Source: an uncultured Pseudomonadales bacterium
GTDB lineage: Bacteria > Patescibacteriota > Microgenomatia > UBA1400 > PJMF01
Direction: 5' to 3'
Length of the DNA: 64,000 nucleotides
Assembly (NCBI GenBank): GCA_964412775.1
Contig: CAYPPX010000001.1
Coordinates: forward strand, 226,699 to 290,698
Positions 10,394 to 55,710 of the stretch are shown here, piece by piece. The notes under the pieces were generated by a model. That model made no database searches and was not told the DNA's origin. It saw nothing but the letters and a program-made list of their open reading frames with translations. The translations under genes were made by a program, and so were the position numbers. The stretch's first letter is position 1, and every line of letters starts with the position of its first letter.

Positions 10394-10401
10394 AAGGTAA
10401 T

Positions 10402-10809: not shown

Positions 10810-10814
10810 CTAAC

Positions 10815-14779: not shown

Positions 14780-14791
14780 GGGAATTGAATC

Positions 14792-15229: not shown

Positions 15230-15236
15230 AAAACCT

Positions 15237-31963: not shown

Positions 31964-32141
31964 AAATTATTTACTTCCTTTTATTAAAAATGGTAAATAA
32001 AGTGAGATAAATGTCAATAATTTATTTTTTCTCACTTACACGGCTGTTAAACTAAAAAATGTTCAAATCAGGAAAATTTAGCAAGCCCCATCAACCCATT
32101 TGAGGGTATTAGACGGGTCTATCAGAACTTTTCGATTGTTG

Positions 32142-32226
32142 CGGAGAGGGCGGGATTTGAACCCGCGGTAGCTTTCACCACGGCGGTTTAGTAAACCGCT
32201 GCACTAGACCACTATGCGACCTCTCC
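32142..32226 (-). tRNA. Type II (long-arm) tRNA, Ser-like, with apparent anticodon ACT in the loop TTACTAA
   Basis: Reverse complement GGAGAGGTCGCATAGTGGTCTAGTGCA-GCGGT-TTACTAA-ACCGC-[18-nt arm]-GCGGGTTCAAATCCCGC-CCTCTCC-G. CCA is not encoded. Confidence 0.6.
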
Positions 32227-34226: not shown

Positions 34227-35594
34227 CTACTTATCCCTTTTCAATTCCTCGAATCTCTCTTGCATAGTTGGATTACCCATGGTGAGTCGCTTGATAGTCA
34301 GGTCATCTATCTTGTTTTCGGCTGTGAGCAAATGTTTATCTGAAAGTGTTAGAGCATCTCGTACTTTTTCAAGATTTTTAATTGCATTATTAATTTGCTC
34401 AACCGCTTCAACATGCTTTTGACCTGCGAATTTCATTGATTTCAACCAGCTATTTTTCCATACATTTACCTCATCTTCAAACTTAGTAATATCTATATTC
34501 TGACTCCTAACTATAGCTAATTCAGTTTTATACTTAAGCGAATTTAAAGCGGCATTCCTGAGCAAAGTAATCATTGGAATAAAGAATTGAGGCCTAATGA
34601 CATACATTTTGGGATATTTATGTGATACGTCTACAATTCCGGTGTTATATAGCTCGTTATCAGCTTCTAGTAATGAAACGAGCACTGCATACTCACAACC
34701 CTTGTCATTTCTATCTTTATCGAGCTTTTTAAAGAAATCTTCATTTTTCTTCTTATTCTCTGTATCATCACCCTCGTTCTTCATTTCAAACATGATGCTA
34801 ATGATTTCTACACCTTGATCATTAGTCTCACGATAGATGTAATCTCCTTTTGTACTGCCCTTTGCGTTTCCCTCATTATCTTTTTCAAAGTAGGCATTTT
34901 GAAAAGCAGTGGCTCTAAGCTTATTGAATTCAATTTCACAGTGCTGTTCAAGGGTTTCACCTAGCATTTTGGTCGAGGCTTTGACCTTCAAATCCTTGTA
35001 ATACTCAATCATTTCCTCTTTACTCTTGAGCTCATTTTCATATTTTTCTTTGATAGAGGTAGTAAGAAGTTTTGACTCAGAATCCTTTTTATCAAGCTTG
35101 TGAATTAGTTCATCTCGTTCTTTTTCAACCACCTTGAGAGCTTCTGTGACAGCTAATTTCTTTTCTGTTTGTGCAGCTTCTATTTGAGATTGAAGCTTGC
35201 TAATTTCAGCTTCTTTTTTAGCAATATCTTCTTGCGATGAGCTTTTAGCATTAGCTTCAGCCAACTTAACAGCTGATTCTTTTTCTTTCTCTAAGACCGC
35301 AATTTTTTCTAGTAGTTTTTGCTCTTTTAACTGGGACTCTAATTCTTTTTGTTGTTCAACATTTTTGCGTACTTTCTCAACTTCTGCATCAAAAGTATCT
35401 TTTTTTATCGAATCAACGACACTTTTGATAGTAGTTTTATCGATATCTAGGTCATGTAGTGAAGATAGGTCAATGAGATCACCCTTTTGACCGTCTTCTT
35501 GTAACTCTAGTGTTTGTTCATCACGGATGGATACTTTGATTTTCTTGCTCATATTATTCCAATCTACTCCATAGTTCTGGGAAATTTTCTTCAA
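34227..35594 (-). CDS. DUF2130-like coiled-coil protein with C-terminal nuclease-like globular domain
   Basis: 455 aa; long E/K-rich coiled coil (residues ~70-200) followed by a C-terminal domain with DKGCEYAVLVSLLE. Confidence 0.45.
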   Translation of the reverse strand: MKKISQNYGVDWNNMSKKIKVSIRDEQTLELQEDGQKGDLIDLSSLHDLDIDKTTIKSVVDSIKKDTFDAEVEKVRKNVEQQKELESQLKEQKLLEKIAVLEKEKESAVKLAEANAKSSSQEDIAKKEAEISKLQSQIEAAQTEKKLAVTEALKVVEKERDELIHKLDKKDSESKLLTTSIKEKYENELKSKEEMIEYYKDLKVKASTKMLGETLEQHCEIEFNKLRATAFQNAYFEKDNEGNAKGSTKGDYIYRETNDQGVEIISIMFEMKNEGDDTENKKKNEDFFKKLDKDRNDKGCEYAVLVSLLEADNELYNTGIVDVSHKYPKMYVIRPQFFIPMITLLRNAALNSLKYKTELAIVRSQNIDITKFEDEVNVWKNSWLKSMKFAGQKHVEAVEQINNAIKNLEKVRDALTLSDKHLLTAENKIDDLTIKRLTMGNPTMQERFEELKRDK

Positions 35595-35976
35595 CTACCT
35601 GATAAATATATTGTGTTTCTTTCGTGTTTTTTGGCAGATTATTTTTGCAATAAACAAACAAAATATTTTGTTTGTGTGTTTTGCTGTCAAGAAAAACAAT
35701 GCAACGATTTCCAGACGCTTTAGGAGAAACTCCAGATTGTGCTATAGCAAAATCATATTTGTAAAGCTTGCAATCAGTACCATGTTTCAACTCATCAACT
35801 TGTTGGGTTCTTTGCAATGATGCAATGCGTTTTAATTCTTGAAAAATTGATTCCAAGGTCACCTGCCATCTTTTGCCTTTATATTTCTTGGCAAAACTTT
35901 TTAAATAATGTCGATCAGCGTAGTCACTGAAAAACACTAAGTAATCAACATCATCAGTCAAGAGGCTTGTAAACAT
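35554..35976 (-). CDS. Small basic protein translationally coupled to the Panacea-domain gene; toxin candidate
   Basis: In-frame starts at 36024 (MANISPTV) or 35976 (MFTSLLTDD); either overlaps the 3' end of the upstream antitoxin-like gene. No recognised toxin fold. Confidence 0.35.
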   Translation of the reverse strand: MFTSLLTDDVDYLVFFSDYADRHYLKSFAKKYKGKRWQVTLESIFQELKRIASLQRTQQVDELKHGTDCKLYKYDFAIAQSGVSPKASGNRCIVFLDSKTHKQNILFVYCKNNLPKNTKETQYIYQVVEENFPELWSRLE

Positions 35977-36685
35977 GATTTGGGTCCTCTTGAATGATGA
36001 GACTGTAGGGGATATATTCGCCATCACGACACATCTTCCATGGTTTTTGTTCATGGGTAAAATTAACAATCTCTTGAGTATTTTTGTCTTTCCAAAGGGT
36101 GCATATTTCTTCAATTAAACTTATTTCTTCTTTGCTAAGTAAATCAAATGTCTCATCTCTAGTATTTGAAGAGATGACAAGTGATTTGTCCATAGGAGTA
36201 ATTTTAATTTTACCGGTATCAAATAATTCATCAGTAGTTTGAAAAAAAATATCAGCCACTGGACCGTATTCCATCCGACGATATTTGACTCCACTCATTG
36301 GTTCTAGTTCACTGAAAAACTTAGCAAAGTCAGCAAGATACAACATCTTGGCTAGTTTTGTTTTCTTTATGCCACCAATTTTTTTATCGCTCGCAAATTT
36401 TATAACAGCAAAATACATCTGACGAAACTTCTTAACATTTGGTGTCTCTTCAAAAAAATCAGCAACATCTATGCCGAATAGAGCAGCTAGAGTGGTCAGT
36501 TCTTCAGTGTTTAAATCACGCTCTCCTTTTTCGACTAAGATCCAACGTTGTCTACTTATACCTAGTTTTTTAGCGACATCTTCTTGAGTGAGACCACTTT
36601 GTTCTCGAAGCTTTATTACTTTTTCAGCTAGGGAATTGTAATTATTCATATTTTTCATTGTAACAGGATTTAAAGTTACTGTCAA
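35954..36685 (-). CDS. HTH-XRE + Panacea (DUF4065/SocA-like) domain protein, antitoxin-like
   Basis: N-terminal LREQSGLTQEDVAKKLGISRQRWILVEKGER (XRE HTH), then KTKLAKMLYLADFAKFFSE, characteristic of the Panacea/GepA domain. Confidence 0.55.
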   Translation of the reverse strand: MTVTLNPVTMKNMNNYNSLAEKVIKLREQSGLTQEDVAKKLGISRQRWILVEKGERDLNTEELTTLAALFGIDVADFFEETPNVKKFRQMYFAVIKFASDKKIGGIKKTKLAKMLYLADFAKFFSELEPMSGVKYRRMEYGPVADIFFQTTDELFDTGKIKITPMDKSLVISSNTRDETFDLLSKEEISLIEEICTLWKDKNTQEIVNFTHEQKPWKMCRDGEYIPYSLIIQEDPNHVYKPLD

Positions 36686-37059: not shown

Positions 37060-38496
37060 ATGAAACTAACAAAATCACTCTTCTTAAGCTACCTAGAATC
37101 TCCACTACATATGTGGTTGTCAGTGCACAGTGATACTCCACCAAAGCCACCATCCCTGTACGACCAACATACGATAAAGCAAGGGTATAGCATTGAAAAA
37201 TTAGCGAAAGAATTTCTACAACGAAAAGTTGCGACTCAGTATCCTGCTGGCACAACACTCTCATTCGAAGCAACACTAACTGATGGGAACTATGAATCTC
37301 GCATTGATGCGTTGGTTCATGACACCGTAAACAATACCTATGATCTGTATGAAATCAAAAGTAGCACCACCATCCACCCTGAGCACAAATATGACGTGAC
37401 CTTTCAGTATTTAGTAGGCAAAGCCACTCTTCCGATCAACAAAGTTTATTTAGTCAGGGTCAACAGTGACTATCAACGAGCTGGGGAGATTGATATCAAT
37501 GAACTCTTCATCGTGGAAGACATGACTGACCACATTGCCAAAAAAGAAGATGAGGTGTATCAACTCAGGTCTGAAGCATGGGGAGTGATGCGACTTGAAC
37601 AAGAACCAAGTGACGAGCATTGTTTTAATCCAGGTACCTGTATCTATCCTGAACACTGCTTCTCTCATCTACCCGATGGCTCAATCTATGAGCTGGGCAG
37701 AGCCAGCAAGAAACAATATAGCGAGCTCCTGGATATGGGAGTGAAGTTGGTCAAAGATATTCCCGATACGTTTACCAGTAACTATAAGCAAAGACTGCAA
37801 ATTCAATCCGCCAGACAAGACCAACCAATCATTGATCACGATGCCATTGCAGAAGAATTAAGTAGGCTGGAATATCCCATCTACTTCTTAGACTATGAAA
37901 CTTATGGCGAAGCCTTACCCATGTACGATGGCTACAAGCCGTATCAGCAGGCAGTAACACAGTTTTCCATCCATGTAGTTCGTCATCCTGGTAGCGATGA
38001 CTTTGAACATTACGAGTGTCTAGCCACAGAATCTGGCGATCCAGCACGACATCTAGCTACAGAGCTGTGCAATGTCATTGGCGACACTGGCTCAGTGATT
38101 GTCTGGAACAAAGGCTTTGAGTGTGGCAGGAATGATGAGTTAGCTATTTTATGCCCTGATCTTTCATCACAACTCAAAAGTATTAATGAGCGAGTTTATG
38201 ACTTGATGGATGTGTTCAAAAATGGCTTGTATGTCGATCACCGTTTCCATGGCAGTGCATCGATCAAAAAAGTCTTGCCCGTGCTATGTCCTGAACTGAG
38301 TTACAAAGAACTAGAAATTGGTGAGGGTACCAAAGCTATGCTTGCTTGGCATGAGATGGTCTATGGAGCTATAACTGCGGAAGAAAAAGAACAAATTAGA
38401 CAAAACCTACTGACCTACTGCAAACTCGATACCTGGGCAATGGTGGAGATTTGGAGAAAACTTAAGCAAGAGCCTCTGAAAGAGACAGCTTTGTAA
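37060..38496 (+). CDS. DUF2779-like protein: N-terminal PD-(D/E)xK (Cas4/RecB-like) plus C-terminal DnaQ/RNase-H-like exonuclease fold
   Basis: D-x-YEIK motif (YDLYEIKSST); Cys cluster CFNPGTCIYPEHC; exonuclease-like YFLDYETYG and KLDTWAMVEIW. Confidence 0.5.
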   Translation: MKLTKSLFLSYLESPLHMWLSVHSDTPPKPPSLYDQHTIKQGYSIEKLAKEFLQRKVATQYPAGTTLSFEATLTDGNYESRIDALVHDTVNNTYDLYEIKSSTTIHPEHKYDVTFQYLVGKATLPINKVYLVRVNSDYQRAGEIDINELFIVEDMTDHIAKKEDEVYQLRSEAWGVMRLEQEPSDEHCFNPGTCIYPEHCFSHLPDGSIYELGRASKKQYSELLDMGVKLVKDIPDTFTSNYKQRLQIQSARQDQPIIDHDAIAEELSRLEYPIYFLDYETYGEALPMYDGYKPYQQAVTQFSIHVVRHPGSDDFEHYECLATESGDPARHLATELCNVIGDTGSVIVWNKGFECGRNDELAILCPDLSSQLKSINERVYDLMDVFKNGLYVDHRFHGSASIKKVLPVLCPELSYKELEIGEGTKAMLAWHEMVYGAITAEEKEQIRQNLLTYCKLDTWAMVEIWRKLKQEPLKETAL

Positions 38497-38967
38497 CATC
38501 ATCACGTACAACTAAAACTATTCTCATATTTAAATCGGTCGGAAGAAGGTTTATTGCTTCTGTTAATTTATGTGCTGATATTTCTACTGGAATCTGATTT
38601 ATGCCAATTCCCAAAGCTGGAAAGGCAATAGATTCCAAACTATTTTTTTGAGACAGCAAAATACTGTTTAAGTAACAATCGGAAAGAGTATCTACACCAT
38701 GTTGATAAAACTTTGGCACAGCGGTATGAATAATACGCTTGAACGGAAGATTAAAAGCAGGAGTGATTATAGCTTTACCGAGTTCTAGAGTATTCTTGTT
38801 TATTTTTGTAATTCTAAGCGACAGTGATTTTCCAATTGAATTTTTCCAGCCCACTTAAATATTTCACCACATAAACCACTTCCAGCCAGCAGGCTTGGAT
38901 GTGCAGGATTAACAATTGCATCGACTTGCTGTTCAAAAATGTCATCTAGCAAGACTTCAATTTGCAT
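38462..38967 (-). pseudogene. Macro-domain (ADP-ribose-binding / deacylase) gene split by a -1 frameshift in an A5 run
   Basis: 38967-38800 encodes MQIEVLLDDIFEQQVDAIVNPAHPSLLAGSGLCGEIFKWAGK (macro N-terminal half). 38854-38462 encodes ...RIIHTAVPKFYQ...SIAFPALGIGINQIPVE (C-terminal half) in the -1 frame. Restoring one A in GGAAAAATTC joins them. Confidence 0.6.
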
Positions 38968-39925
38968 ATGAGAGCAATTCGATAGGAATGTTTTCAGGGA
39001 TAATCGTTGGAATCTTATTTTCTGTTGTTCTGATTCTTGGAAACTTGCTTGAGAAAATTGAGAGCAGACTACTCAGGGGATCAAAAGCTAATCTATTCTC
39101 ATTGAAATAGTTACTTGCTTCAAGCAAATCTTGATCATTATCAGCAATTTTTTCTAAATGATCTTGATTACGCTGATCCCACCTTACTCTGGATTCTTCT
39201 ACCATTCTTTTTACTTCATCTTCAGGTGTTTGAAATGCTTCAAGTTCATTCCAATCGATTGTTTTCCAACTATCATTCTCTAGTGCTGTAATAAACATCT
39301 TATTGAGGTGATCATACCCATCTGCTGTCTTCACAAGATAGTCATGAAACTCTTGGTTGACGTGGTCTGCCTTAAGTAGGCTATCAGCATTTTGTTTAAT
39401 TTTTGTAACATCTGCTGGAAGTTGATCTAACGTGAGCAGCCAATTGTCATAATCCTTAATGTCGTAAATGGATTGATCAATCTGAACTACCAGCATTAAG
39501 GTCTCTGTCATCAAATGTTCATTTCGTTTGCGGTTGCGAAAACTCTCCGAGAGTTTGTGATATTCCAACAAACTTGACTGTTTTAACCCAAGATAATGCT
39601 TATATTTATTTGGTAGAAAGAAGAATATTTTTTCTTGTTTAGAGTTGTACAAAGAGGCTTGTTCTAGTGATGAAAGAGCATTATCCAATTCATTCTCTAT
39701 GGCCTTGCCCAAACTGGCAAAGATCTCATCATCCACACGTTCAGGACCTTGCTGCCGAAGTGAAATACCTTGCTCTGCTTTACCTATAGAAATGTATGCA
39801 TTAGAAAAATTCTGCCGAAAACCTAATTCTAGTTCGTTGAAGTAGAATCTAGGAAACCAAGAAATGAATATGAAAATAGAGACTAGAATTACAAAGATGG
39901 GTATGAAGATATGAATTGTCTTCAT
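38957..39925 (-). CDS. Membrane-anchored hypothetical protein (N-terminal TM helix, 322 aa)
   Basis: MKTIHIFIPIFVILVSIFIFISWF TM segment. 4-nt overlap (ATGA) with the upstream methyltransferase gene, so same operon. Confidence 0.45.
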   Translation of the reverse strand: MKTIHIFIPIFVILVSIFIFISWFPRFYFNELELGFRQNFSNAYISIGKAEQGISLRQQGPERVDDEIFASLGKAIENELDNALSSLEQASLYNSKQEKIFFFLPNKYKHYLGLKQSSLLEYHKLSESFRNRKRNEHLMTETLMLVVQIDQSIYDIKDYDNWLLTLDQLPADVTKIKQNADSLLKADHVNQEFHDYLVKTADGYDHLNKMFITALENDSWKTIDWNELEAFQTPEDEVKRMVEESRVRWDQRNQDHLEKIADNDQDLLEASNYFNENRLAFDPLSSLLSIFSSKFPRIRTTENKIPTIIPENIPIELLSYAN

Positions 39926-42900
39926 TTAGACTGAGCTTCAATAATTTTAATTTCATCATCAGTTAAATTGTATAAGTGGTAAACCATTTCATCGATTTTT
40001 TTCTCTAAATTAATTTGTTCAATTGGTGGCCTTTCTGGATCATATCCATCAACTGAAGTAATTGCCAGCACTTGGTCAGTGAGATCAATAAAAGGCTGTT
40101 GCTCAGTTTCTGAAATTACTTTTATAGGAATTTCTGATAAAGGTCCTTTATAAAGTTCAAGAATATCGCCTTTTCTTTTACCTCTATTATATAGCCACAA
40201 ATAAATCAATTTAGAATTTAAAACAGATAGCAAATAAGCAATTTTCAAATTATTTTTTATAGAAGTTATGTAATAAACATCCCCAGCGCCAATAAGATTG
40301 CCGTTGGTTTTAGCAAATACATTCTTTTTAGAACGATACGGACACACAATATGGTCACCAGTGTCAACCAAGAAACTTCTTTTTGATCCTCTGAGCCAAT
40401 ACCAAGAGTTTTCATCATCGTTGACCTGTTCTCTAGCTTTTAATATTGGACGAAATTTTAAAAGGTAATTCTTTATCCAAGGATAATTTTGAATATTTAC
40501 TTCTGAATCAACATATATGTAGAACATTTCCTTTTTCAAAGAAACAAAAAACCTATGAATATCAGAATTCTTAATAAATGGCTTAATTATTTCATGTCTC
40601 TCAAACTGAGGAACTTTCTCATAAGTTTCAAAATCAATAATATAAATGTTTGATCCAACTTGAATATTATTTTTTGATAGATAATCATGAGTCACAAATT
40701 TATTTTCTAGAGCTCTATTAAGCAAAGCCTTACCAACAACATCTGCTCCAGATTGAACACCCATGTTTATATAACTGAGTTCACCCAAATTGACGCAGTT
40801 TGTTTTTATCTTGTTTAATAATTTTGATTTCTTAGAATCAGAATTATTTATACCTTCAAATCTAATATAGTTATTCTCACCATCATATATCTGACTTTGA
40901 GATAAAGTTAAATACTTGCTTTCATCATTCTTATTGTGAATTATCTCTGTTAACAAGCTTTCGCTAGCCGTACCATTTTTGTTTGTGACAATTATTTTTG
41001 CATGGTTATCTTTATCAATTTGTTTTTCAAAAATAGTGATCATGTTATGTTGCCCAAGAGCAGACTTAAATATTCTAAGTTCATTAAAATTAATTAAATT
41101 CCTAATAACAGATCTAGTTTTTAAGTCTAATCTAAGCTTTTTTGCACCATCAGCTGTAATAAAATAATTAGTTGTAATAAAAGCATTTTGAGATTCTTCT
41201 TTACCAATATTTAATGCTAAATGAAAGAAAAAATAAAAAAGATCCATTTTTCTTTGGTAAAATGACTTTAGATTTCCATTGCTGATTTCTCTAAAGATTT
41301 TTTTATTGCCTTTTTCTCCTACATAAGGTGGGTTCCCAATAACTATATCGAAACCTCCTTTTTCCTTGAATACATCACTGAATTCTAGTTTCCAAATAAA
41401 AAATGGTTTAATATTTTTATGTCTTAGCTTAATTAAATTGTTAAGCTCTTTAATCTTCTTCTGTTCTTTGAATGATTCCTCAATAATTTCCCATTTCAAG
41501 TTATCAATATCTTCTTTTAGTGTCTGTTTTTTTGTTTTCTGTGATTCGTCCACATACTGACTTATTTTATTTTGCAGATCTTCAAGTTTTATTTCTGAGT
41601 TTGATTTGCCAAAACCAAAAGGCAACTGCTCAGCCTTGAATTCTTTAGATTTCTTAAATATTCCTTCATCAAATAACTTAATTCCTTCATACTCCGAAAT
41701 CAGACTATTGCCTTGCATTATTTTGTGGTCAAGGTTGGGGAGTGGACTTGGAGTAGATTCCTCCACAATAAGAGTTAGCCATAAACGTAGTTTGGCGATT
41801 TCTACTGCACCCGGATCGATATCAACTCCATGAATTGAATTAGATATTGCATGTTTTTTAAGTTGGTAGTCAGTTAGTCTCTTATCCAAATAAATGTTTA
41901 ATATTTTTCTAGCTCTAACAATCTCATTTATCATCCCTAACGGAAAAGCTCCTGACCCGACAGCTGGATCAGCCACTTTAATGTTCATTAGAAGTTCATC
42001 CAATTCATCTGCTTTCTTTATAATAGATTCAGCTAATAAGAGCTTGTAAGTCCCAGAATACTTATACCCCTTATTTTCCTTTTCTCTAATCTTTTTTAAA
42101 GCGATGCTGTCATTTTCAATAATTCTATCCCCAGTATAGATAAAACTTTCAATATCTTTTCTATCAATATTGTCAGTTTCTGATTCTAAGTAATTAATCA
42201 AACACTCTTGGCACATGTAATGAACAATTTCTCTAGGAGTATAGAAGGCACCCTTGCTTTTTCTATCTCTGACTTGGAGCAAATTTTCAAAAACCTTGCC
42301 GAGCATTTCTGGATCAACAGCAACCTCCTTTTCCAGTGGTTCATTTTCATTAACCGTAAAGTTATACCTATCAAAAACGTCTAGGATGCCATTACCCCTA
42401 TCTCCATTTTTTGTGGGGATATTATTAGAGAATACTTCGTCAGGAATGTTAATATCAGTTGTTTCCCAAGCGTAATCATTCATTGGCTCAAATAATCCAC
42501 CGTTTAAAAATGGCATCCTACAGTTGTTGAGTTTTGGGTAAAATGAGTTCTTGCCTCTATCCTGAGCCAGTGCCTCATAAAATAGTGGCTCTAATACATC
42601 ATCAAAAAAGTTTTTTCCATATTTTGATCTTCTATCAAATAGCTCTCTTAAAAAGTTTTTAGGTCCATCTCCCCAAGATTTATTTGGAGCTACCCCAAAC
42701 CAACCTTTCTTTTGAAGAAAGTAGAGAAATACAATTTGACCCATTGTCTTCTTTGCAAAATCAACAGTATCAATTTCTTTCGAACTAAACTCGTTTTTGA
42801 TATTTTCATCACTTAAAATTATTTTGTCTAAATTCTCTTTGAAAACCAAGAAAAGCTCCTTGTACTTTTCAAAGAACTCATTGGTTACAACTTCAATATC

Positions 42901-43455
42901 AAATGCTGATTCAAATTCCTCTAAGTTTGGTTTCTGATTGTTTACTAGAAGATTAACAAATCTACTCTGTGCAGTATGAGTACCTTCGTTTTTTCCAACC
43001 AAAAAAGACCATCTTTTTGCTGGAGTAATTTCTTCTATCGTAGTTATCTTGTTGTTTTTAACTTCTAGAGAGTGATCAAGCTTAATAAGTGAAAAACGCC
43101 AATCACTTTTACTTTGAGGGATGAACGCAACCAATGCAGCTAATTTATTATTAGATTTTAGATAGTCTGCAACAAAATTCCTTTGGGCAGTTCTTGCTTT
43201 ATCCAGAGATTTATCATTTGTTAAGCTTACTTCTAAAATATCTATCTTTTGTGATCTATCGTCTTCAAAATAGCCAATGACCTTATAGTTATCTATAAAT
43301 GGCTTAAAAGAATCTTTTACATACGTATTGTCAACATTTTTGTTAACTCTCGTAAAAACTTTCAGCAAATTACTAATAAATAGCTGAAACTTACTATCGT
43401 TAAACTCTGTACTAAAAACTTCCTTGATTATTCTTTTAGCATCATTCTGATTCAT
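39922..43455 (-). CDS. MmeI/PglX-like large N6-adenine DNA methyltransferase (1177 aa) with degenerate N-terminal nuclease-like domain and C-terminal specificity region
   Basis: Motif I ADPAVGSGAFPLG and motif IV VIGNPPYVG (gamma-class amino-MTase). N-terminal KIDILEVSLTNDKSLDKA aligns with the MmeI D-x-EMK-x-DLDKA nuclease motif, but Lys is replaced by Ser. Confidence 0.7.
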   Translation of the reverse strand: MNQNDAKRIIKEVFSTEFNDSKFQLFISNLLKVFTRVNKNVDNTYVKDSFKPFIDNYKVIGYFEDDRSQKIDILEVSLTNDKSLDKARTAQRNFVADYLKSNNKLAALVAFIPQSKSDWRFSLIKLDHSLEVKNNKITTIEEITPAKRWSFLVGKNEGTHTAQSRFVNLLVNNQKPNLEEFESAFDIEVVTNEFFEKYKELFLVFKENLDKIILSDENIKNEFSSKEIDTVDFAKKTMGQIVFLYFLQKKGWFGVAPNKSWGDGPKNFLRELFDRRSKYGKNFFDDVLEPLFYEALAQDRGKNSFYPKLNNCRMPFLNGGLFEPMNDYAWETTDINIPDEVFSNNIPTKNGDRGNGILDVFDRYNFTVNENEPLEKEVAVDPEMLGKVFENLLQVRDRKSKGAFYTPREIVHYMCQECLINYLESETDNIDRKDIESFIYTGDRIIENDSIALKKIREKENKGYKYSGTYKLLLAESIIKKADELDELLMNIKVADPAVGSGAFPLGMINEIVRARKILNIYLDKRLTDYQLKKHAISNSIHGVDIDPGAVEIAKLRLWLTLIVEESTPSPLPNLDHKIMQGNSLISEYEGIKLFDEGIFKKSKEFKAEQLPFGFGKSNSEIKLEDLQNKISQYVDESQKTKKQTLKEDIDNLKWEIIEESFKEQKKIKELNNLIKLRHKNIKPFFIWKLEFSDVFKEKGGFDIVIGNPPYVGEKGNKKIFREISNGNLKSFYQRKMDLFYFFFHLALNIGKEESQNAFITTNYFITADGAKKLRLDLKTRSVIRNLINFNELRIFKSALGQHNMITIFEKQIDKDNHAKIIVTNKNGTASESLLTEIIHNKNDESKYLTLSQSQIYDGENNYIRFEGINNSDSKKSKLLNKIKTNCVNLGELSYINMGVQSGADVVGKALLNRALENKFVTHDYLSKNNIQVGSNIYIIDFETYEKVPQFERHEIIKPFIKNSDIHRFFVSLKKEMFYIYVDSEVNIQNYPWIKNYLLKFRPILKAREQVNDDENSWYWLRGSKRSFLVDTGDHIVCPYRSKKNVFAKTNGNLIGAGDVYYITSIKNNLKIAYLLSVLNSKLIYLWLYNRGKRKGDILELYKGPLSEIPIKVISETEQQPFIDLTDQVLAITSVDGYDPERPPIEQINLEKKIDEMVYHLYNLTDDEIKIIEAQSK

Positions 43456-43460
43456 AAGAA

Positions 43461-46400
43461 TTAGTTACCTTTAAAGTATTCTGAGAGAATTATTTCCTTT
43501 TTTGTTGACGTGTTCATATTTACACCACTATCTGAATCTTCTAAAAATTCTGATGGAAGAGTAGTTTTTAAAATCCCCAAAATTTTAATTGGATTATTAA
43601 TAATCTCAATATTTTGAGATAGTTCTTGATAAATTTTCTGAGTTATTTTTTTGGGGATACCTCCACTATTAAGTTCAATGATAACTCTTCGGACATAGTC
43701 TTCATCATCTTCAGTAAATTTTTCATAATTTTTAACTTGCTTAGCGTTTAATATTTTATAAAGTCTAGCGGCATTATCTCTACTTCCTCTTTTGGTTGAA
43801 AATTCGTTTTCTTCATAATCTTCCATCTGATTTAACATAGAAAGATTTTTTTCAAGCAATTTGTAGAACAATTCATCAATTGCTAGTTTCTTCTCATTAA
43901 CATCAGCATGTAATATTTTTGCTGCTTCAATAAAGTCTATTTCACGCGCATCTGCAGAAGCAGAATTTTCGACAATAAAGAATTTTTGAATTTTCCCTTT
44001 TCTAAAGTATGTTAAAAGTTCTGTTTTTAAATTCTGGGATCTTCTTGCGGTACGAGCTTTTTTTGGGAGTCTTTTTATTTTTGCAAATAGCTTGGGATCA
44101 TTATCTCTGATATTTCTAATTTCTTGCAAATACCCCAAATCGCTTTCTTCATTTTGGTCTTCTCCCTCAATCATTTCCTTTGAAAGCATTCGGCTAAATA
44201 AGCTATGGCCTTCTGGAACTTCGTCATCTGTGAGAAGCTTGGCGTCAGCACCAAGCAAGGTAATGAATGCTTGGATTTTTGCTTCAGCTAGCTCCTTTAG
44301 CTTAATTTGCTCATTTGATTGTTCAGTGGGGAATAAAGTATAGGTGTAAATTTCTTTATGCTTGGTATCTACTCTGTTTATACGTCCCACTCTTTGCATA
44401 ATCTTGGTTGGATTCCAAGGAATATCATAGTTAATTACTACATTGGCTTGATGAAGATTAGCACCTTCAGAAAGAACATCAGTAGTTATTAAGACTTTAT
44501 AGTCGTCTTTTAGAATTCTAGAATTTGCATCAAAATTTTCCATCACAATTTCTCTCTCTGCTAGAGAACTGCCTCCGGAAAAATAAATGATTCGTTCTGG
44601 GAAAATGTCTTGTAGGTTTTTCAACAAATATTCTGCTGTTTCTTTTGATTCAGTAAAAATAATTGATTTCCCATTTTTTACCGGTTCTTCCAAAGACAAC
44701 TTTTCTTTAAAAGCTAAAATTTTAGGATCTCTAGAGATATTGGCCCACAGTCGCTTTATATTTCTCAAAATTTCTAAATCTTCATGTAAGTTCTTAATAA
44801 ATTCATCAGTAAAATCTTTTGTCTCAAATTTTTCAGCTTTTTTATCTTCTACTAGCTTATCGATTGACTCTAAATTTCCCTCATCTAAATAGTCAAATAT
44901 TTTTTGTATATGGCTTCTACTGACATAAACGCTTCCGTCCTCATATGCTTCAATAAATTTCTCGTAAGAGGAAATAAATCGATCAATTGTTTTGTTAAAT
45001 GCGTAGAAGCTACTTTCTAGTCTTTTTATCAACAGCATTTTCATGAATTTCATCATGTTTTTCTGTTGGTGCTTTTCTTGGTTGGTAATTCCTTTGTAAT
45101 ATAGAAGCGGAGTGTAACGAGAGTACTTAAAATCATTCGTAATTATTTTTAAAGTCTCAAAAAATACAGTGTCTTCTTCTTTACTAAATTCATAAAAGAT
45201 AGGCGCAGGATCGGCAATTTTAGGAAAACTCATTTTTTGATTTTGTAGATCATCCCCGTAATATTTAACAATCTCGGCTCTAGTTCTTCTGACCATCAAA
45301 TATTTAAGAACTTTTTCCCTAATAAGCCTGGAGTTTTCTTTTGTTACATCAATGTATTTCTGCTTATCTTTTTTACGATCTAAATCTTCTAATTTTTTAT
45401 CCAAAACCTTAAAAAAGCCTTCCAAGTTTGGTAAGTTGGGAATTGTACTTTGTTTAGATCTTTGAAAGAGTTTTATTTGAGAAAGTAGGTCTTTTGGCGA
45501 ATTATTATATGGAGTAGCTGTAACAAGAATAACTTTTTTTCCTCGACAAATTTGGGCTAGCTTTGCATAAGTTTCAGTTTCTTCTGTGCGGAAACGATGT
45601 GATTCGTCAATCAAAACTATGTCAAATTCTTTATGCAAATCCTTATCGATGATTTTATCCAGCATTCCAATTGACTCACATCTATAATCTTTAGATCTGA
45701 AACCAAAGTTTTTGAAAGAATTCTTCCAGCTACCTTCATTATTTTCATCGATCAAGTGAGGAGGAGCTAATACCAAAATTCTTCCAGCTAATTCCTGGCA
45801 AAGCATGGTGCCCATGTATGTCTTACCAAGACCAACAACATCTGATAAGAATACACCACCATATTCATCAACAATTTTCTTTGCATTGATAACAGCATGA
45901 TCTTGATATTTCAGTTCTTTAAAATTATCTGGTCTGTAATTATGACTTAAATTTTCTTCTTCATTAATTTCTTCTCTGAAGTATTCATAGAGAAATTTTA
46001 AATAGAGTTCATATGGAGTAATGTCTTCTCTAATCCAGGTATCATTTTCAATTGTTTCAATATACTTTTCACTGACATCGATGCCATTTTCCCAGAGTTC
46101 GTTAAATTTATTTAATGCAAATTTATAGTCTGAGGGATTTTTAAGTTCAACGTTAAACTCTAAATTATCTACTAAACCACTTTGTGTAAAATTGCTAGAA
46201 CCCGTAATCACCCTTCCAAGATCTCGATCATCTTCATCAAAAGTCATTATGTAGAGTTTTGAATGGATCTTTTCCTCAGGGTAAGCCCTGACTTCAAGCT
46301 TTCCAGATTTTAACCATTCAAGAAACTTATGTACTCCTGCCTCAACCTTATGGTTATTTTCACTCTCATCCATTTCATTTTTAATACTTTCTCCAATATC

Positions 46401-46658
46401 ATCACCAATTTCCTTATATGATTTTGAAACCTGAAGAAGATTGTATGTTTGTCTATTGGTACTAATCCCGATTAAGATTCTGATCTTTTCAGTTTTTTCA
46501 AGCTGAGGGTAGATAGCATAAAATCCACTAGTATAAAAATATCCAACCAAAATATCGAATAAACGAGTGTCTTTAACTAAAACATTAAATCTACTTTTTA
46601 GGTTTTCGCCATTTTCATTAGTAATAAATGTTAAGTCTGTACTCATATTTATACGCAT
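43461..46658 (-). CDS. Fusion of PLD-family (HKD) nuclease domain and SF2/SNF2-like helicase (1065 aa)
   Basis: HKD motif IHSKLYIMTF...GRVITGSSNFT; helicase motifs I VGLGKTY, II VLIDESHRF, III LVTATP, VI QRVGRINR. A 5-nt gap separates it from the downstream MTase gene, so it is co-transcribed. Confidence 0.7.
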   Translation of the reverse strand: MRINMSTDLTFITNENGENLKSRFNVLVKDTRLFDILVGYFYTSGFYAIYPQLEKTEKIRILIGISTNRQTYNLLQVSKSYKEIGDDIGESIKNEMDESENNHKVEAGVHKFLEWLKSGKLEVRAYPEEKIHSKLYIMTFDEDDRDLGRVITGSSNFTQSGLVDNLEFNVELKNPSDYKFALNKFNELWENGIDVSEKYIETIENDTWIREDITPYELYLKFLYEYFREEINEEENLSHNYRPDNFKELKYQDHAVINAKKIVDEYGGVFLSDVVGLGKTYMGTMLCQELAGRILVLAPPHLIDENNEGSWKNSFKNFGFRSKDYRCESIGMLDKIIDKDLHKEFDIVLIDESHRFRTEETETYAKLAQICRGKKVILVTATPYNNSPKDLLSQIKLFQRSKQSTIPNLPNLEGFFKVLDKKLEDLDRKKDKQKYIDVTKENSRLIREKVLKYLMVRRTRAEIVKYYGDDLQNQKMSFPKIADPAPIFYEFSKEEDTVFFETLKIITNDFKYSRYTPLLYYKGITNQEKHQQKNMMKFMKMLLIKRLESSFYAFNKTIDRFISSYEKFIEAYEDGSVYVSRSHIQKIFDYLDEGNLESIDKLVEDKKAEKFETKDFTDEFIKNLHEDLEILRNIKRLWANISRDPKILAFKEKLSLEEPVKNGKSIIFTESKETAEYLLKNLQDIFPERIIYFSGGSSLAEREIVMENFDANSRILKDDYKVLITTDVLSEGANLHQANVVINYDIPWNPTKIMQRVGRINRVDTKHKEIYTYTLFPTEQSNEQIKLKELAEAKIQAFITLLGADAKLLTDDEVPEGHSLFSRMLSKEMIEGEDQNEESDLGYLQEIRNIRDNDPKLFAKIKRLPKKARTARRSQNLKTELLTYFRKGKIQKFFIVENSASADAREIDFIEAAKILHADVNEKKLAIDELFYKLLEKNLSMLNQMEDYEENEFSTKRGSRDNAARLYKILNAKQVKNYEKFTEDDEDYVRRVIIELNSGGIPKKITQKIYQELSQNIEIINNPIKILGILKTTLPSEFLEDSDSGVNMNTSTKKEIILSEYFKGN

Positions 46659-46784
46659 GCCTTTGTCAGTCAGTAATTAATTAGGGTCTTGCCTAGAATT
46701 TATCCACTACATGATTAATTATAGACCATAAACTCTTAGCTTGGGTTATCAATATCAATGAAAGTAACAGTACATGCTTCTATG

Positions 46785-46830: not shown

Positions 46831-47031
46831 GAAATATCAATCTAATTTGCCATTTTTCCTATTGTATTTTCGTTTGGAATGATTTAGCATGAATTTACTC
46901 GCAAGAGTCGTGTGCGGACACGTTAAATGACGCATTTCAAAATAGTTCTTTGTTGTCTCCAGGAGGCAACTAAAAGGTATTTTGGGATGCGTCTTTTTTT
47001 TATCAATTTTTCCGCAGATGAAAGGAGTGAT

Positions 47032-48330
47032 ATGCCCAAAAGCATACAGCAATCGTACAAAGTAAAGGAGCTTCGTATCACTGAAGTGCCGATCGAACAG
47101 ATAAAAGAAGCAGACTACAACCCTCGCTTTTTATCGCAGAAAGCAGAAGCGGATCTGACCAAAAGCTTGGAGATTTACGGCTGTACTGAGCCTTTGATAA
47201 TTAACATGTTTCCTGGTCGTGAATACACGCTCGTCTCTGGTCATCAAAGGCTGAAAATCTTAAAGAAACTTGGATATACATTAGTGCCAACAGTCAGTGT
47301 GAATTTGCCACTAGAAGCAGAGATGAAGTTGAACCTTCGTATGAACCGTAATATTGGCGAATTCGATCTAAACTTGCTACGTAATTTCGAGCTTGATGTA
47401 CTGCTTGAGACTGGATTTGACGATTCCGACTTGTCAGCAATCTGGGATGAGGCACTAGAAATTCAGGATGATGATTTTGATGTTGAGCAGGCAGTCATCC
47501 AGCACGCTGAACCAAGAACCAAACCAGGCGATCTGTATCAGTTGGGCCCGCATAGGCTACTTTGCGGTGATGCCACTTCACTTGCTGACATTCAGCGACT
47601 GGTGGGAAATGAAAGAATCGACATGGCGTACTGCGATTCTCCCTTTAATATCAGTCTCGACTACGCCAACGGCGTCAGCACTAAGGGCAAGTATGGAGCG
47701 ACTAAAACCAATGACTCAAAGACAACTGAAGAATATCGTCAATTTCTCCACGATGCAATTAGTAATGCCATTGCAGTGAGTAAGCCAGATGCTCACTACT
47801 TCTACTATATGGACCAAAACTGGATTTGGTTGCTACAGATGCTCTACATGGAGCTTGGCATTAAGCACGAGCGGGTGTGTTTATGGATTAAAAATAATTT
47901 TTCACCCACAAGTGGCAACAGTTTTAACAAATGTTATGAACCTGTAATTTATGGTGTGCGTGGCAAGCCATACCGCAACCCAAAGTTACTCAATCTTAAC
48001 GAGATTTTAAACAAAGAGGTCGGGACTGGTAATAGGTTGCACGATGACATTCTAGACCTAATGGAAATTTGGTTGGTCAAACGTAAGGCTGGGCAGGACT
48101 ATCTTCACCCAACTGAAAAATTGCCATCTCTTCACGAAAAAGCTTTAAGGCGATGCACGAAACCAGGAGACCTTGTGCTCGATACTTTCGGTGGTAGTGG
48201 TTCCCTAATGGTGTCCTGTGAACAGTTAAAACGTAGAGCCTACCTTTGCGAACTCGATCCAGTCTTTTGCGACGTGGTTATTGACCGCTATACAAAATTA
48301 ACCGGAAAGGAACCAATCTTATGCAAATAA
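47032..48330 (+). CDS. ParB-like nuclease domain fused to N6/N4 DNA methyltransferase
   Basis: N-terminal ParB/Srx fold (KELRITEVPIEQIKEADYNPR...LVSGHQRLKIL), then MTase motifs CDSPFN and LDTFGGSGS. AGGAG RBS before the ATG at 47032. GC-richer than the host. Confidence 0.65.
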   Translation: MPKSIQQSYKVKELRITEVPIEQIKEADYNPRFLSQKAEADLTKSLEIYGCTEPLIINMFPGREYTLVSGHQRLKILKKLGYTLVPTVSVNLPLEAEMKLNLRMNRNIGEFDLNLLRNFELDVLLETGFDDSDLSAIWDEALEIQDDDFDVEQAVIQHAEPRTKPGDLYQLGPHRLLCGDATSLADIQRLVGNERIDMAYCDSPFNISLDYANGVSTKGKYGATKTNDSKTTEEYRQFLHDAISNAIAVSKPDAHYFYYMDQNWIWLLQMLYMELGIKHERVCLWIKNNFSPTSGNSFNKCYEPVIYGVRGKPYRNPKLLNLNEILNKEVGTGNRLHDDILDLMEIWLVKRKAGQDYLHPTEKLPSLHEKALRRCTKPGDLVLDTFGGSGSLMVSCEQLKRRAYLCELDPVFCDVVIDRYTKLTGKEPILCK

Positions 48331-49070
48331 AACCAGGCATGATTTTACAACTCGGCGAGCATGTCCTCGCCTGTGGTAATAGCACTGACAAAGAGTTTGT
48401 CAAAAAAGTAGTTGGCGATACCAGTATTGCCTCAGTGCAGTCAGACCCTCCATATGGGGTCGCAATTGCTGATTCGTCACTTAATCCATCCAAACACAAG
48501 TCACTTGTGAATGATCACCTGCAATCTGATCAGGAGTATGCCGAATTCACACAGAACTGGCTAGAGGCAGTCAAGCCCTTTCTAGCCAAGAAAAACTCAG
48601 CCTATGTGTGGAACTCAGACAAGATGGTCTTTGCTCTGAGACAAGGACTGTTGCAGTCAGGATTCAAGGTGTCTCAGATGCTGATTTGGGTTAAATCTCA
48701 GCCAGTCATCGGTAGGTTGGATTACTTGCCCATGCATGAACTCTGCCTTTATGGCTGGCATGGCACTCATAAATTCCACAAAGCCAAAGACAAGTCGGTA
48801 CTGTTTGCTCCCAAGCCACAGAAAAGTAAATGGCATGCAACTCAAAAACCAGTCACCTTAATTCGGCGACTCATCCTCAACAGCACTGAAATTGGCGACA
48901 CGGTCTACGACCCATTTTTGGGTAGTGGCACTACTATGCTTGCCAGCCAGCAAACCCTTCGCAAATGCATTGGCATCGAGCTTGTGCCCGAATATTGCCA
49001 AGTTGCAGTTGAGCGCTGGGAGCGTTTAACAGGGCTAAAGGCAACCGTGAGAAAGGAATCCCATGAATAA
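48321..49070 (+). CDS. DNA methyltransferase (N6/N4, beta class)
   Basis: SDPPYG motif IV near the N-terminus and FLGSGTT motif I near the C-terminus. 10-nt overlap with the upstream gene. Confidence 0.65.
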   Translation: MQIKPGMILQLGEHVLACGNSTDKEFVKKVVGDTSIASVQSDPPYGVAIADSSLNPSKHKSLVNDHLQSDQEYAEFTQNWLEAVKPFLAKKNSAYVWNSDKMVFALRQGLLQSGFKVSQMLIWVKSQPVIGRLDYLPMHELCLYGWHGTHKFHKAKDKSVLFAPKPQKSKWHATQKPVTLIRRLILNSTEIGDTVYDPFLGSGTTMLASQQTLRKCIGIELVPEYCQVAVERWERLTGLKATVRKESHE

Positions 49071-49491
49071 AGACCTACAAGACCGCACTGCTATCAATCG
49101 ACAACTCATGCTAGAACAGCTCCAGAAGACCCCAGTGGTGCAGGTGTGCTGTGAAAAGCTGGGCATAGCCCGTTCGACCTACTACCGCTGGAGGGAGGAA
49201 GACCCAGAATTTGCCAAGCAGGCGGATAAAGCTTTAGCGGAAGGAGTGGCACTGATTAATGATCTTACCGAATCTCAACTTTTATCTGCTATTAAAGATC
49301 GCAACATCTCTGCAATTTTTTATTGGTTGAACCACAGACACTCTGCCTACAGCAATAAGCTAGAGATCACTGCCAAGGTGAAGGATGAGGCACTAACGTC
49401 AGAGCAGGAGGCATTGATTAAAAAAGCTCTGGAGCATGCATCGCTCTTAATTGACCCTAGTAGAAAGGAGCATGATGACGGCCAGCATTAA
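49063..49491 (+). CDS. Terminase small subunit-like HTH protein
   Basis: VQVCCEKLGIARSTYYRWREEDPEF HTH, typical of phage TerS/Nu1-like proteins; directly precedes TerL. Confidence 0.45.
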   Translation: MNKDLQDRTAINRQLMLEQLQKTPVVQVCCEKLGIARSTYYRWREEDPEFAKQADKALAEGVALINDLTESQLLSAIKDRNISAIFYWLNHRHSAYSNKLEITAKVKDEALTSEQEALIKKALEHASLLIDPSRKEHDDGQH

Positions 49492-51040: not shown

Positions 51041-51236
51041 GCTTCACCTTCAGCACCTTAGCGATTTTCTGAAGCACTTCCAGCGAGGGGACGTTGCGTC
51101 CTTGCTCTATGTAACCCATGTAGGCACGACTGACACCAACCTTAAAAGCAACTGTTTCCTGTGACAAACCAGTTTCTTTACGAGCTTTCTGGACTTTTTG
51201 GCCAAGCACTTTGGGCAATTTGGCATTTTTTCTCAT
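51024..51236 (-). CDS. XRE-family HTH transcriptional regulator
   Basis: 70 aa; GLSQETVAFKVGVSRAYMGYIEQGRNVPSLEVLQKIAKVL. Confidence 0.65.
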   Translation of the reverse strand: MRKNAKLPKVLGQKVQKARKETGLSQETVAFKVGVSRAYMGYIEQGRNVPSLEVLQKIAKVLKVKLSDLV

Positions 51237-51348
51237 GCCCTAATTGTTTAGTGAAAAGGCGTTTCACTCCACTTAGTGAGAGTTAGCAATTTCTTCTGGT
51301 ATTGAGCTTGCTTTTATGCTAACTCTGGCTTATCATTAGTCAGGAAAT

Positions 51349-52452: not shown

Positions 52453-52459
52453 TGAGTAT

Positions 52460-53064: not shown

Positions 53065-53067
53065 CAT

Positions 53068-53985: not shown

Positions 53986-54011
53986 CTTTCTAGCCTAGAC
54001 TTTCCATCCTT

Positions 54012-55705: not shown

Positions 55706-55710
55706 AAAAA

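Follow-up and report, generated by a model that had tools for sequence, protein, structure and literature searches.

Type ISP enzymes, such as LlaGI and LlaBIII, carry an Mrr nuclease, an SF2 translocase, a gamma-class adenine methylase and a C-terminal target-recognition domain (TRD) in a single polypeptide; they recognize an asymmetric site, methylate one strand and translocate in an ATP-driven manner. In Type III systems, the Mod methylase is of the beta class with an internal TRD, and Res carries a C-terminal PD-(D/E)XK nuclease. SauUSI, a Type IV enzyme, works without a methylase and targets modified DNA through its own SRA-like domain. The ATP-dependent Type II systems CglI and NgoAVII use a cytosine-5 methylase and keep PLD nuclease and helicase on separate proteins. 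MANTIS, also known as Gao_RL or BR type 2, is a DUF499-centred, BREX-related system (MtsA-D) in which a PLD-SF2 dimer (MtsD) acts together with an adenine methylase; the latter hemimethylates 6-bp sites that are asymmetric, and it directs modification as well as restriction (bioRxiv 10.64898/2026.09.23.753747). Methylation by MANTIS depends on MtsA and MtsB, its methylase cannot bind DNA without the AAA+ loader, and nuclease activity of MtsD in vitro has not yet been shown (bioRxiv 10.64898/2026.09.23.753747).

A two-gene arrangement of a PLD-helicase and a methylase has been noted in passing. In 2018, orf33 and orf34 of the L. lactis plasmid pLd8 were described as a protein with PLD, SNF2 and helicase C domains followed by a 'Type IIG' methylase with no recognisable nuclease, for which the PLD-helicase was proposed to supply restriction (PMC6098607). 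Milman et al. list a pair of the same architecture in 2023 (PMC9881135), and plasmid pJM1F of L. cremoris carries an annotated helicase/methylase pair. Our literature search for a name of the two-gene system returned passing mentions only.

We analysed a 64,000-nucleotide window of a Pacebacteria (Patescibacteria) genome, whose best named SecY matches are 85-89% identical, in line with the CPR host assigned in the first-pass annotation of this DNA. That annotation described four closely spaced genes on the minus strand with a self-contained restriction-like core of two genes, the PLD nuclease being carried on the helicase. Both the arrangement and the core hold on inspection. Gene 1 (43461..46658, 1065 aa) and gene 2 (39922..43455, 1177 aa) are 5 nt apart (43456-43460), with a stop codon between the ORFs, and the ends of genes 2 and 3 share 4 nt (39922-39925); the bounds given for the macro-domain gene, gene 4, were wrong. 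The domain content, the motif conservation, the strict pairing, the hypervariability of the TRD, the lack of any other conserved partner and the recent horizontal exchange were all obtained by computation. Our preferred reading, to which we assign a probability of about 0.62, is that genes 1 and 2 form a minimal, horizontally moving, two-protein, ATP-dependent restriction-modification-like defence cassette from which genes 3 and 4 are excluded.

Gene 1 encodes, as judged from its motifs, a PLD nuclease with a single HKD motif that is joined to a full SNF2-type SF2 ATPase, as first annotated, and is the predicted restriction effector. The PLD/HKD domain (aa ~20-195, 46074..46601, minus strand; Pfam PLDc_2 at aa 48-189) has one HKD motif per chain, H132-S-K134 ... 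G153-S-S-N156. The motor (aa ~245-800, 44259..45926, minus strand) contains motifs I (GLGKT, 276), II (DESH, 351), III (TATP, 380) and VI (QRVGRINR, 755). Its fold matches SNF2 translocases, and the ResIII match in Pfam reflects the generic ATPase N-lobe only. In 59 diverse homologues, H132, K134, G153-S-S-N156 and the ATPase motifs are kept in at least 95% of the sequences, which points to an active effector. The C-terminal region (aa ~840-1065, 43461..44138, minus strand) is poorly conserved, with a mean column conservation of 0.34-0.43 past aa 900, and is modelled as a beta-sheet followed by a helical bundle. No modified-base reader (SRA, DUF3427) was detected in gene 1 by Pfam, and a search of its helicase against a phage collection gave two weak matches and no close relative. 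The top PADLOC match, 'C3a139 HKD+Snf2' (181 bits), belongs to a type III CRISPR accessory-protein family (Shah et al. 2018) and was rejected.

Gene 2, an N6-adenine methyltransferase from the Eco57I/MmeI lineage, is predicted to be the specificity and modification subunit. Motif I (DPAVGSG, 496) precedes motif IV (NPPY, 708) in its catalytic domain (aa 431-830, 40966..42165, minus strand), which is the gamma-class order that the first-pass annotation had recognized. Both motifs are invariant in our homologue alignment (A1), suggesting an active methylase. The Pfam matches, all over their cut-offs, are Eco57I (121 bits, 6e-35), MmeI_Mtase (45 bits) and TaqI_C (30 bits); PADLOC assigned the REase_MTase_IIG model with 647 bits, from REBASE-derived models that yield a Type IIG label, and PDB profile matches included CamA, M.BseCI, PglX/BrxX, TaqI and MmeI. 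A helical spacer (aa 161-430, 42166..42975, minus strand) resembles the N-terminal helical regions of MmeI, PglX and Type I HsdM. At the C-terminus, a TRD (aa 831-1177, 39922..40965, minus strand; TaqI_C at aa 961-1111) is present as previously suggested. It is hypervariable: its identity to the related loci L006, L019 and L081 is 37-47%, whereas the remaining methylase is 88-100% identical. Against L081, the core is 100% and the TRD 47% identical, and nucleotide similarity is absent across positions 40222-41027. Such divergence on a near-identical scaffold indicates specificity swapping. The reading frames of genes 1 and 2 are both intact.

The N-terminal alpha/beta domain of gene 2 (aa 1-160, 42976..43455, minus strand) had been aligned to the MmeI nuclease motif with the catalytic lysine replaced by serine. 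The string D65-x9-E75-x-S77 is indeed present, but the likeness is confined to this short motif. Homology to the MmeI nuclease was dropped, as Pfam searches with six family members at E <=10 gave zero matches over aa 1-380, and the PDB profile search matched MmeI in the TRD region only. Neither a nuclease Pfam domain nor MmeI_N or MmeI_hel was detected in gene 2. Among 36 diverse homologues, D65 is found in 31, E75 in 10 and K77 in 3, the present copy having S77, so that, on the alignment, the canonical D-x9-E-x-K motif is degenerate family-wide and not in this copy alone; the degeneracy claimed earlier thus extends to the family. Ten other residues of the domain are conserved in 36/36, and E157 is invariant. 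Structure prediction, proposed earlier as a way to confirm loss of the active site, gave a moderate-confidence model with weak matches to a restriction-endonuclease-like fold. The invariant E157 and the mostly conserved D65 may form a non-canonical nuclease site. With the canonical D...ExK lost and other residues invariant, we read the domain as most likely a coupling or DNA-handling platform rather than a nuclease.

Conserved neighbourhoods, which the first-pass annotation had suggested looking for, were found across bacteria and archaea. In the 48 informative loci, defined by a full helicase and at least 3 kb of downstream sequence, the methylase lies downstream of the helicase on the same strand in 45; the gap is 30 nt or less in 41 of these paired loci (range -11 to +18). 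Methylase-anchored look-ups recovered a helicase upstream in 3/3 cases. No neighbour family occurs as a third partner in more than 5 of ~70 related loci. The pair is distributed over many bacterial phyla and methanogenic archaea and is found on prophages, plasmids and islands in very different hosts, near Gabija-like/OLD ATPases, toxin-antitoxin pairs, ArdA and TIR proteins. In the present window, the cassette has a GC content of 0.30-0.33 versus 0.37-0.45 in its flanks. Its core is ~100% identical to L081, whereas the flanks are 80-90% identical; the ~100%-identical tract spans genes 1 and 2, while genes 3 and 4 reach only 94-96%. Genes 1 and 2 are therefore a conserved mobile two-gene unit that was recently exchanged horizontally.

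The first-pass annotation placed Type III and DISARM as the nearest kin; by architecture, the closest characterised relative is instead MANTIS/Gao_RL. In each, the effector joins a single-HKD PLD domain at its N-terminus to an SF2/SNF2-like ATPase, and a separate large gamma-class N6-adenine methylase carries the specificity domain. They differ in that the DUF499 AAA+ ATPase (MtsA) and the DUF3780 protein (MtsB) are absent from the present locus and its relatives, in the ~160-aa extra N-terminal domain of the present methylase, which MANTIS-like plasmid methylases lack, and in the gene order, which here is helicase and then methylase. Additionally, gene 1 scores 80 bits with PADLOC PLD_Helicase and 148 with NCBIfam NF042964 against a cut-off of 1100. 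We take these two models to represent the MANTIS effector family, and the low NF042964 score indicates a common architecture and not orthology.

It is unlikely, although it is the best of the alternatives, that the pair is part of a larger DISARM class 1, BREX-related or MANTIS-like system whose remaining components (DrmA/B, a DUF499 ATPase, DUF3780) lie elsewhere or are supplied by the host, or that it acts like BREX without cleaving DNA. DISARM class 1 likewise has a DrmD-related SNF2 helicase, a DrmMI-related large adenine methylase and a PLD nuclease somewhere in the system, and gene 1 matches the DrmD, BrxHII, HmaA and PLD_Helicase/'phospholipase D-like anti-phage protein' models just as gene 2 matches those of DrmMI and PglX; the dependence of MANTIS methylation on MtsA and MtsB also speaks for additional partners. 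However, these scores are far under the cut-offs: gene 1 reaches 125 bits with PADLOC DrmD and 144 with NCBIfam NF038317 (cut-off 610), and gene 2 reaches 78 bits with the best PglX model (cut-off 500) and 102 bits with PADLOC DrmMI, far under the 647 bits of the Type IIG model. DrmA and DrmB (DUF1998) are absent here, and the PLD domain sits on the SNF2 helicase, where DISARM would have a separate DrmC. ORFs of the size of PglZ and BrxC are likewise absent from the window, in which the only ORF of at least 530 aa besides genes 1 and 2 is one of 726 aa at 674-2854; the absence of such partners was claimed earlier, and none recurs in the ~70 related loci. The two-gene unit also moves among very different hosts, prophages and plasmids as such. 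Distant MANTIS-like plasmid methylases align to gene 2 from ~aa 184 onward only and are without the family-specific N-domain.

No named defence system matched above its cut-off in the PADLOC and NCBIfam models, in line with the first-pass annotation, which had matched the operon to none; its impression of novelty has to be reduced, given the 2018 and 2023 mentions of the architecture. The Lactococcus pairs of pLd8 and pJM1F share this architecture but are distant, with the methylase ~31% identical over aa 229-775, and their locus has an added TRD shufflon with an Mpi invertase. The pair is best read as working like Type ISP, Type III or MANTIS (Gao_RL), yet as a member of none. Its set of parts (nuclease, SF2 translocase, gamma-class adenine methylase, C-terminal TRD) is that of Type ISP, as if such an enzyme had been divided into a motor protein and a methylase; here, however, there are two ORFs, and the nuclease is PLD and not Mrr. 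Unlike in Type III systems, gene 2 has a gamma-class layout with a C-terminal TRD, and gene 1 carries its nuclease at the N-terminus as a PLD/HKD domain; none of the gene 2 matches is to a Type III methylase model of PADLOC. In contrast to CglI and NgoAVII, PLD is fused to the helicase and the methylase acts on adenine.

A considerably less probable reading makes gene 2 a stand-alone Type IIG/IIL, MmeI-like enzyme whose own N-terminal nuclease does the cutting, with gene 1 independent or auxiliary, for example a SauUSI-like modification-dependent protein. Enzymes of the MmeI-family Type IIL and the Eco57I-family Type IIG, including Cj0031 of C. jejuni, do have a homologous methylase core, a helical spacer and a TaqI_C-type TRD. 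Nevertheless, Type IIG enzymes carry a functional PD-(D/E)XK nuclease in the same chain, and the corresponding catalytic residues of gene 2, E and K above all, appear unconserved across the family, a decay that a working nuclease beside a second nuclease would leave unexplained. An obligate ATPase-nuclease partner gene lies beside gene 2, and this near-obligatory pairing, with overlapping or abutting stop and start codons, argues against autonomy. Likewise, gene 1 is without the C-terminal DUF3427/SRA-like reader of SauUSI and, in the 45/48 loci, has a methylase adjacent to it.

Genes 3 and 4 had been regarded as add-ons to the core. Gene 3 (38957..39925, minus strand) encodes a 322-aa protein with a single N-terminal hydrophobic segment (~aa 3-24), consistent with the membrane anchor first noticed; its family has no match in Pfam, NCBIfam, PADLOC or PHROGs, counts 35 representatives among 1.84 billion, and gave one locus in a single-sequence metagenome scan. 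Of the related loci, L081 and L084 alone have gene 3. Gene 4 (38462..38967, minus strand) does have the macro domain previously assigned (Pfam Macro, 9.7e-19). Its start codon is the ATG at 38967, which gives an 11-nt overlap with the end of gene 3, and not the GTG at 38854 (the 130-aa ORF). Read directly, the sequence has a one-base frameshift in the assembly at an A-run near 38803-38810, and when the intact L081 orthologue is aligned to the window, its residues 1-55 fall in one frame and its residues 51-168 in another; intact 168-aa orthologues occur in L081 and L084. An operon of four genes, with the membrane protein and the macro domain taking part in defence, e.g., by sensing linked to the membrane or by ADP-ribose signals that feed into restriction, would fit the co-orientation, the 4-nt and 11-nt overlaps and the same layout in L081 and probably L084. 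We consider it very improbable. The four-gene co-orientation is limited to the present lineage: the two genes are absent from the other ~70 related loci, in the syntenic relative L005 their place is taken by unrelated ORFs, gene 3 belongs to a tiny family, the macro gene carries a frameshift and the identical L081 tract excludes both. Comparison of loci thus rules them out as system components, and from their sequence context they are local passengers, outside the conserved system.

At the other end of the cassette, a conserved upstream leader with a putative promoter (46659..46753, minus strand; promoter-like site at 46752-46725) precedes gene 1. Nucleotide homology to L005 is 88% over 39947 to 46753 and then drops to ~68%. 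Promoter and terminator scans were no better than on shuffled sequence, in which promoter-like sites were as common as at the leader. The genes flanking the pair are a ParB-methylase, gene 3 and the macro gene. As for the integrated island described in the first-pass annotation, the locus adjoins a prophage-like island, and the search for att-type direct repeats bounding it found only similarity among tRNA-Ser genes.

As remote as the four-gene operon is a non-defence epigenetic regulator made of an orphan-like methylase and a DNA-remodelling or repair translocase. The SNF2 fold is common to remodelers and RapA, and gene expression is regulated by phase-variable Type IIG methylases, of which Cj0031 is an example (cited in PMC9881135). 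This reading is opposed by the conserved PLD nuclease fused to the motor, by the hypervariable TRD, by the horizontal exchange of the pair and by its location on prophages, plasmids and islands, with other defence genes nearby.

In the two-protein restriction-modification-like cassette that we favour, the methylase would use its exchangeable C-terminal TRD to read a short DNA sequence, which is probably asymmetric, with methylation probably on one strand only, and would mark host DNA by N6-adenine methylation. At an unmodified site, the bound methylase would recruit or license the PLD-SNF2 protein. Having one HKD motif per chain, this protein would need to dimerise to form a single PLD active site; its motor would track along double-stranded DNA, and it would cut the invader. 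Hemimethylation, N-domain-mediated recruitment, dimerisation, translocation and any influence of site orientation are proposed by analogy with Type ISP, Type III, SauUSI and MANTIS. The analogy with MANTIS may fail at the first step, since the AAA+ loader that its methylase needs is absent here.

More tentatively, and with somewhat less than even odds, the pair may represent a widespread class of two-protein, ATP-dependent restriction-modification systems of bacteria and archaea, in which the methylase loads and methylates without an AAA+ loader and an inactivated restriction-endonuclease-like N-domain has taken on the new task of linking site recognition to a dimeric PLD-SNF2 motor nuclease. 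Such a class would amount to a new restriction-modification 'type' that bridges Type IIG/ISP and BREX-related systems.

If two genes suffice, the pair would be the smallest known member of the methylation-guided, motor-driven PLD nucleases, which include MANTIS and are related to DISARM class 1. It would then offer a tractable model for the way in which a methylase bound at its site licenses a nuclease that translocates, and for why larger systems need extra ATPases. Current pipelines label the methylase 'Type IIG restriction enzyme/methyltransferase' and its partner 'helicase-related protein', which, across thousands of genomes, attributes the nuclease function to the wrong one of the two genes. 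Exchangeable TRDs, set on a scaffold that is otherwise the same, could be put to use as programmable adenine methylases. For CPR biology, the locus means that a Pacebacteria genome has acquired a prophage-associated cassette, with a predicted role in defence, that is common to distant phyla.

Four ORFs in the same orientation span positions 38462-46658 of the minus strand. Gene 1 (43461-46658) encodes a 1065-aa protein with PLDc_2/RE_NgoFVII matches at aa 48-190 and ResIII, SNF2-rel_dom and Helicase_C matches at aa 248-763, while gene 2 (39922-43455) encodes a 1177-aa adenine methylase that matches Eco57I (6e-35), MmeI_Mtase and TaqI_C, the last in its target-recognition domain (TRD). The 322-aa product of gene 3 (38957-39925) has a single hydrophobic segment at its N-terminus and gave zero matches across Pfam, NCBIfam, PADLOC and PHROGs; gene 4 (38462-38967) encodes a macro domain in a split reading frame. 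The ORF layout agrees with the first-pass annotation, with genes 1 and 2 separated by 5 nt and genes 2 and 3 overlapping by 4 nt, and both large genes are intact, being uninterrupted and of the lengths found in their homologues (1058-1068 aa and ~1140-1240 aa, respectively).

Scanning one genome per GTDB species, we identified 72 loci with gene 1 relatives, distributed among many bacterial phyla and methanogens. Cultured carriers include Proteocatella sphenisci DSM 23131, Robertmurraya massiliosenegalensis JC6, Haloimpatiens lingqiaonensis KCTC 15321, Clostridium guangxiense WZ_1, Methanoculleus methanifontis and L. cremoris JM1 (pJM1F). The pairing count was limited to the 48 loci in which the helicase is complete and followed by 3 kb or more of sequence; in 45 of these, a homologue of gene 2 lies downstream in the orientation of the helicase. 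The gap between the two genes is -11 to +18 nt in 41 of these 45, and one or two unrelated genes sit between them in the remaining four. Three look-ups anchored on the methylase each found a PLD-SNF2 gene upstream, one with a HigBA pair between both genes and another within a Peregrinibacteria prophage. When all other neighbouring ORFs were clustered, no family occurred in more than five of the ~70 loci, and the few that recurred were mobile-element genes of close relatives. The conserved unit is genes 1 and 2.

The four-gene operon originally proposed is not supported as a unit. No homologues of gene 3 or the macro gene were found at any locus of the species scan; outside the window they are confined to L081 and L084, two related loci from the same lineage. 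In the syntenic relative L005, the corresponding slot (14727-16236) is filled instead by two unrelated ORFs (269 and 179 aa), each with a hydrophobic segment at its N-terminus, and the 269-aa ORF overlaps the methylase stop by 4 nt, as gene 3 does in the window. Gene 3 belongs to a small family, with 35 representatives in a set of 1.84 billion proteins. The macro gene had been assigned a GTG start at 38854; based on sequence reading and alignment with the L081 orthologue, its start is the ATG at 38967, with an 11-nt overlap with the gene 3 stop. The orthologues in L081 and L084 are intact (168 aa). Since residues 1-55 and 51-168 of the L081 protein align in different frames of the window, with the break at the A-run CAAAAATAAAC near 38803-38810, the window copy is a pseudogene unless the break is an assembly error in the homopolymer.

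Two further arrangements concern gene order. Modules including HigB/HigA, an AAA-ATPase with a 241-aa ORF, ~275-aa ORFs and a possible transposase are inserted at the helicase/methylase junction of five related loci (L079, 5340-5996; L041, 11306-13358; L026, 10628-11455; L018, 11586-13711; L011, 5825-6322); such insertions seem either to be tolerated at this junction or to be drawn to it. A four-gene variant in Nostoc cf. commune pANSO36A (2482-10915) encodes, in this order, a methylase of 1111 aa, ORFs of 183 and 418 aa and a helicase-related protein of 1100 aa, an arrangement unlike both the two-gene layout and the annotated MANTIS layout.

Across 59 diverse helicase homologues, the HKD residues of gene 1 (H132, K134 and G153-S-S-N156) and ATPase motifs I, II, III and VI are at least 95% conserved; the PLD part contains one HKD motif. 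Homologues of gene 2 show no variation in motif I (DPAVGSG) or motif IV (NPPY). The N-domain of the methylase (aa 1-160) contains the literal string D65-x9-E75-x-S77, so the would-be MmeI-type motif with Ser for the catalytic Lys was correctly read, and Lys is present at position 77 in 3 of 36 diverse homologues. The homology to the MmeI nuclease proposed along with it was not borne out: a Pfam search found nothing over aa 1-380, and PDB profile matches (CamA, M.BseCI, PglX/BrxX, TaqI, MmeI and DrdV) were confined to the methylase and TRD parts. Among the other candidate catalytic positions, D65 is kept in 31/36, D72 in 23/36 and E75 in 10/36. Because E75 and K77 are poorly kept and ten other residues (R88, Q91, R92, W119, R120, S122, R148, S150, E157 and T161) are each present in 36/36, a pattern with which a 117-sequence set agrees, the conservation indicates that the N-domain is under strong selection, though not for a canonical D...ExK site.

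Compared with the window methylase, those of three related loci (L006, L019 and L081) are 88-100% identical over aa 1-830 and 37-47% identical over aa 831-1177; gene 2 is thus hypervariable past aa 830. At the DNA level, window positions 41500-46700, which take in the helicase plus the first two-thirds of the methylase, are ~100% identical to L081 (GCA_040960375.1, JBFOMN010000025.1), whereas the flanks are 80-90% identical and no nucleotide similarity was detectable in the TRD segment 40222-41027. These differences point to a helicase/methylase core that was transferred, or spread by gene conversion, very recently, with the TRD replaced as well. Homology with L005 is 88% over 39947-46753 versus ~68% in the flanks, which sets the cassette borders, with a 95-nt leader included. 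The GC content is 0.30-0.33 in the cassette versus 0.37-0.45 in the flanks. In L. cremoris pJM1F (566-9059), a distant form of the same two-gene pair has behind it part of a TaqI_C TRD gene in inverted orientation and a gene for an Mpi-family invertase, an arrangement that looks like a phase-variable TRD shufflon.

The host belongs to the Pacebacteria/Patescibacteria, its SecY being 85-89% identical to those of named members. The cassette adjoins phage-derived genes in a prophage-like island (46927-56484) with a ParB-N6/N4 methylase (46927-48330), a second methylase (48321-49070), small and large terminase subunits (49063-49491 and 49451-51040), DUF7638/7639 (53068-53985) and a large serine recombinase (54401-55705) adjoining tRNA-Ser(gct) (56397-56484); no att repeats of this island were found. 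Given this SecY and these neighbours, the earlier placement of the operon in an island of a CPR genome is reasonable. On its other side, the cassette is flanked by DUF2130 (34227-35594), an HTH + SocA/Panacea antitoxin-like gene (35954-36685) and a DUF2779 protein gene (37060-38496) convergent with the macro gene (35-nt overlap), kinds of genes typical for mobile or defence regions. In the Peregrinibacteria prophage, too, DUF2130 comes after the helicase/methylase pair. Additionally, ARAGORN reported a tRNA-Ser with anticodon ACT on the minus strand (32141-32226), unusual for bacteria; the 3' halves of the tRNA-Ser GGA and GCT genes are similar to it.

Among characterised architectures, the nearest is that of the Type-2 DUF499-centred BREX-related system described by Rakesh and Krishnan (2026) and studied experimentally as MANTIS/Gao_RL (bioRxiv 10.64898/2026.09.23.753747). 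In MANTIS, a SauUSI-like PLD-SF2 dimer, MtsD, restricts DNA with unmethylated asymmetric 6-bp sites, MtsC hemimethylates the sites, and this methylation depends on both MtsA, an AAA+ loader, and the small protein MtsB. No counterparts of MtsA or MtsB were found at the window locus, and none recur among the ~70 related loci. The more distant MANTIS-like plasmid methylases align with gene 2 from ~aa 184 onward only, which argues that the N-domain is specific to the two-gene family. Every match to a named defence family was partial and far under cut-off: gene 1 scored 144 bits against DrmD (cut-off 610), 148 against NF042964 'phospholipase D-like anti-phage protein' (cut-off 1100) and 80 against PADLOC PLD_Helicase, and gene 2 scored 78 against PglX (cut-off 500) and 102 against PADLOC DrmMI. 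Assignment of gene 1 to its best PADLOC match, the type III CRISPR accessory family C3a139 'HKD+Snf2' (181 bits), was rejected.

Our computational observations support the domain content and the conservation of the motifs, the pairing of the genes, the variability of the TRD and mobility. We propose, with a probability of about 0.6 for the mechanism as a whole, that the methylase-TRD subunit would recognise its site and methylate adenine and, at unmodified sites, would license the PLD-SNF2 protein, which would dimerise to form one PLD active site, translocate on dsDNA with ATP and then cleave. Hemimethylation, recruitment, dimerisation and translocation, like any dependence on orientation, are suggested by analogy with Type ISP, Type III, SauUSI and MANTIS. 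For the coupling surface, the methylase's degenerate N-domain and its helical spacer are the strongest candidates.

Literature searches found no paper naming or testing the two-gene system; passing mentions exist. In L. lactis pLd8 (orf33/orf34), the PLD protein was proposed as the restriction source for a 'Type IIG' methylase without such activity (PMC6098607), and a table in Milman et al. (2023) lists a 'Type II RM CDS homologous to Cj0031' beside a PLD + SNF helicase CDS (PMC9881135). The general idea of a restriction-like core stands, as a paired and conserved unit, but it is less novel than first thought. The two-gene system is very widespread and mis-annotated, and its architecture itself has precedents.
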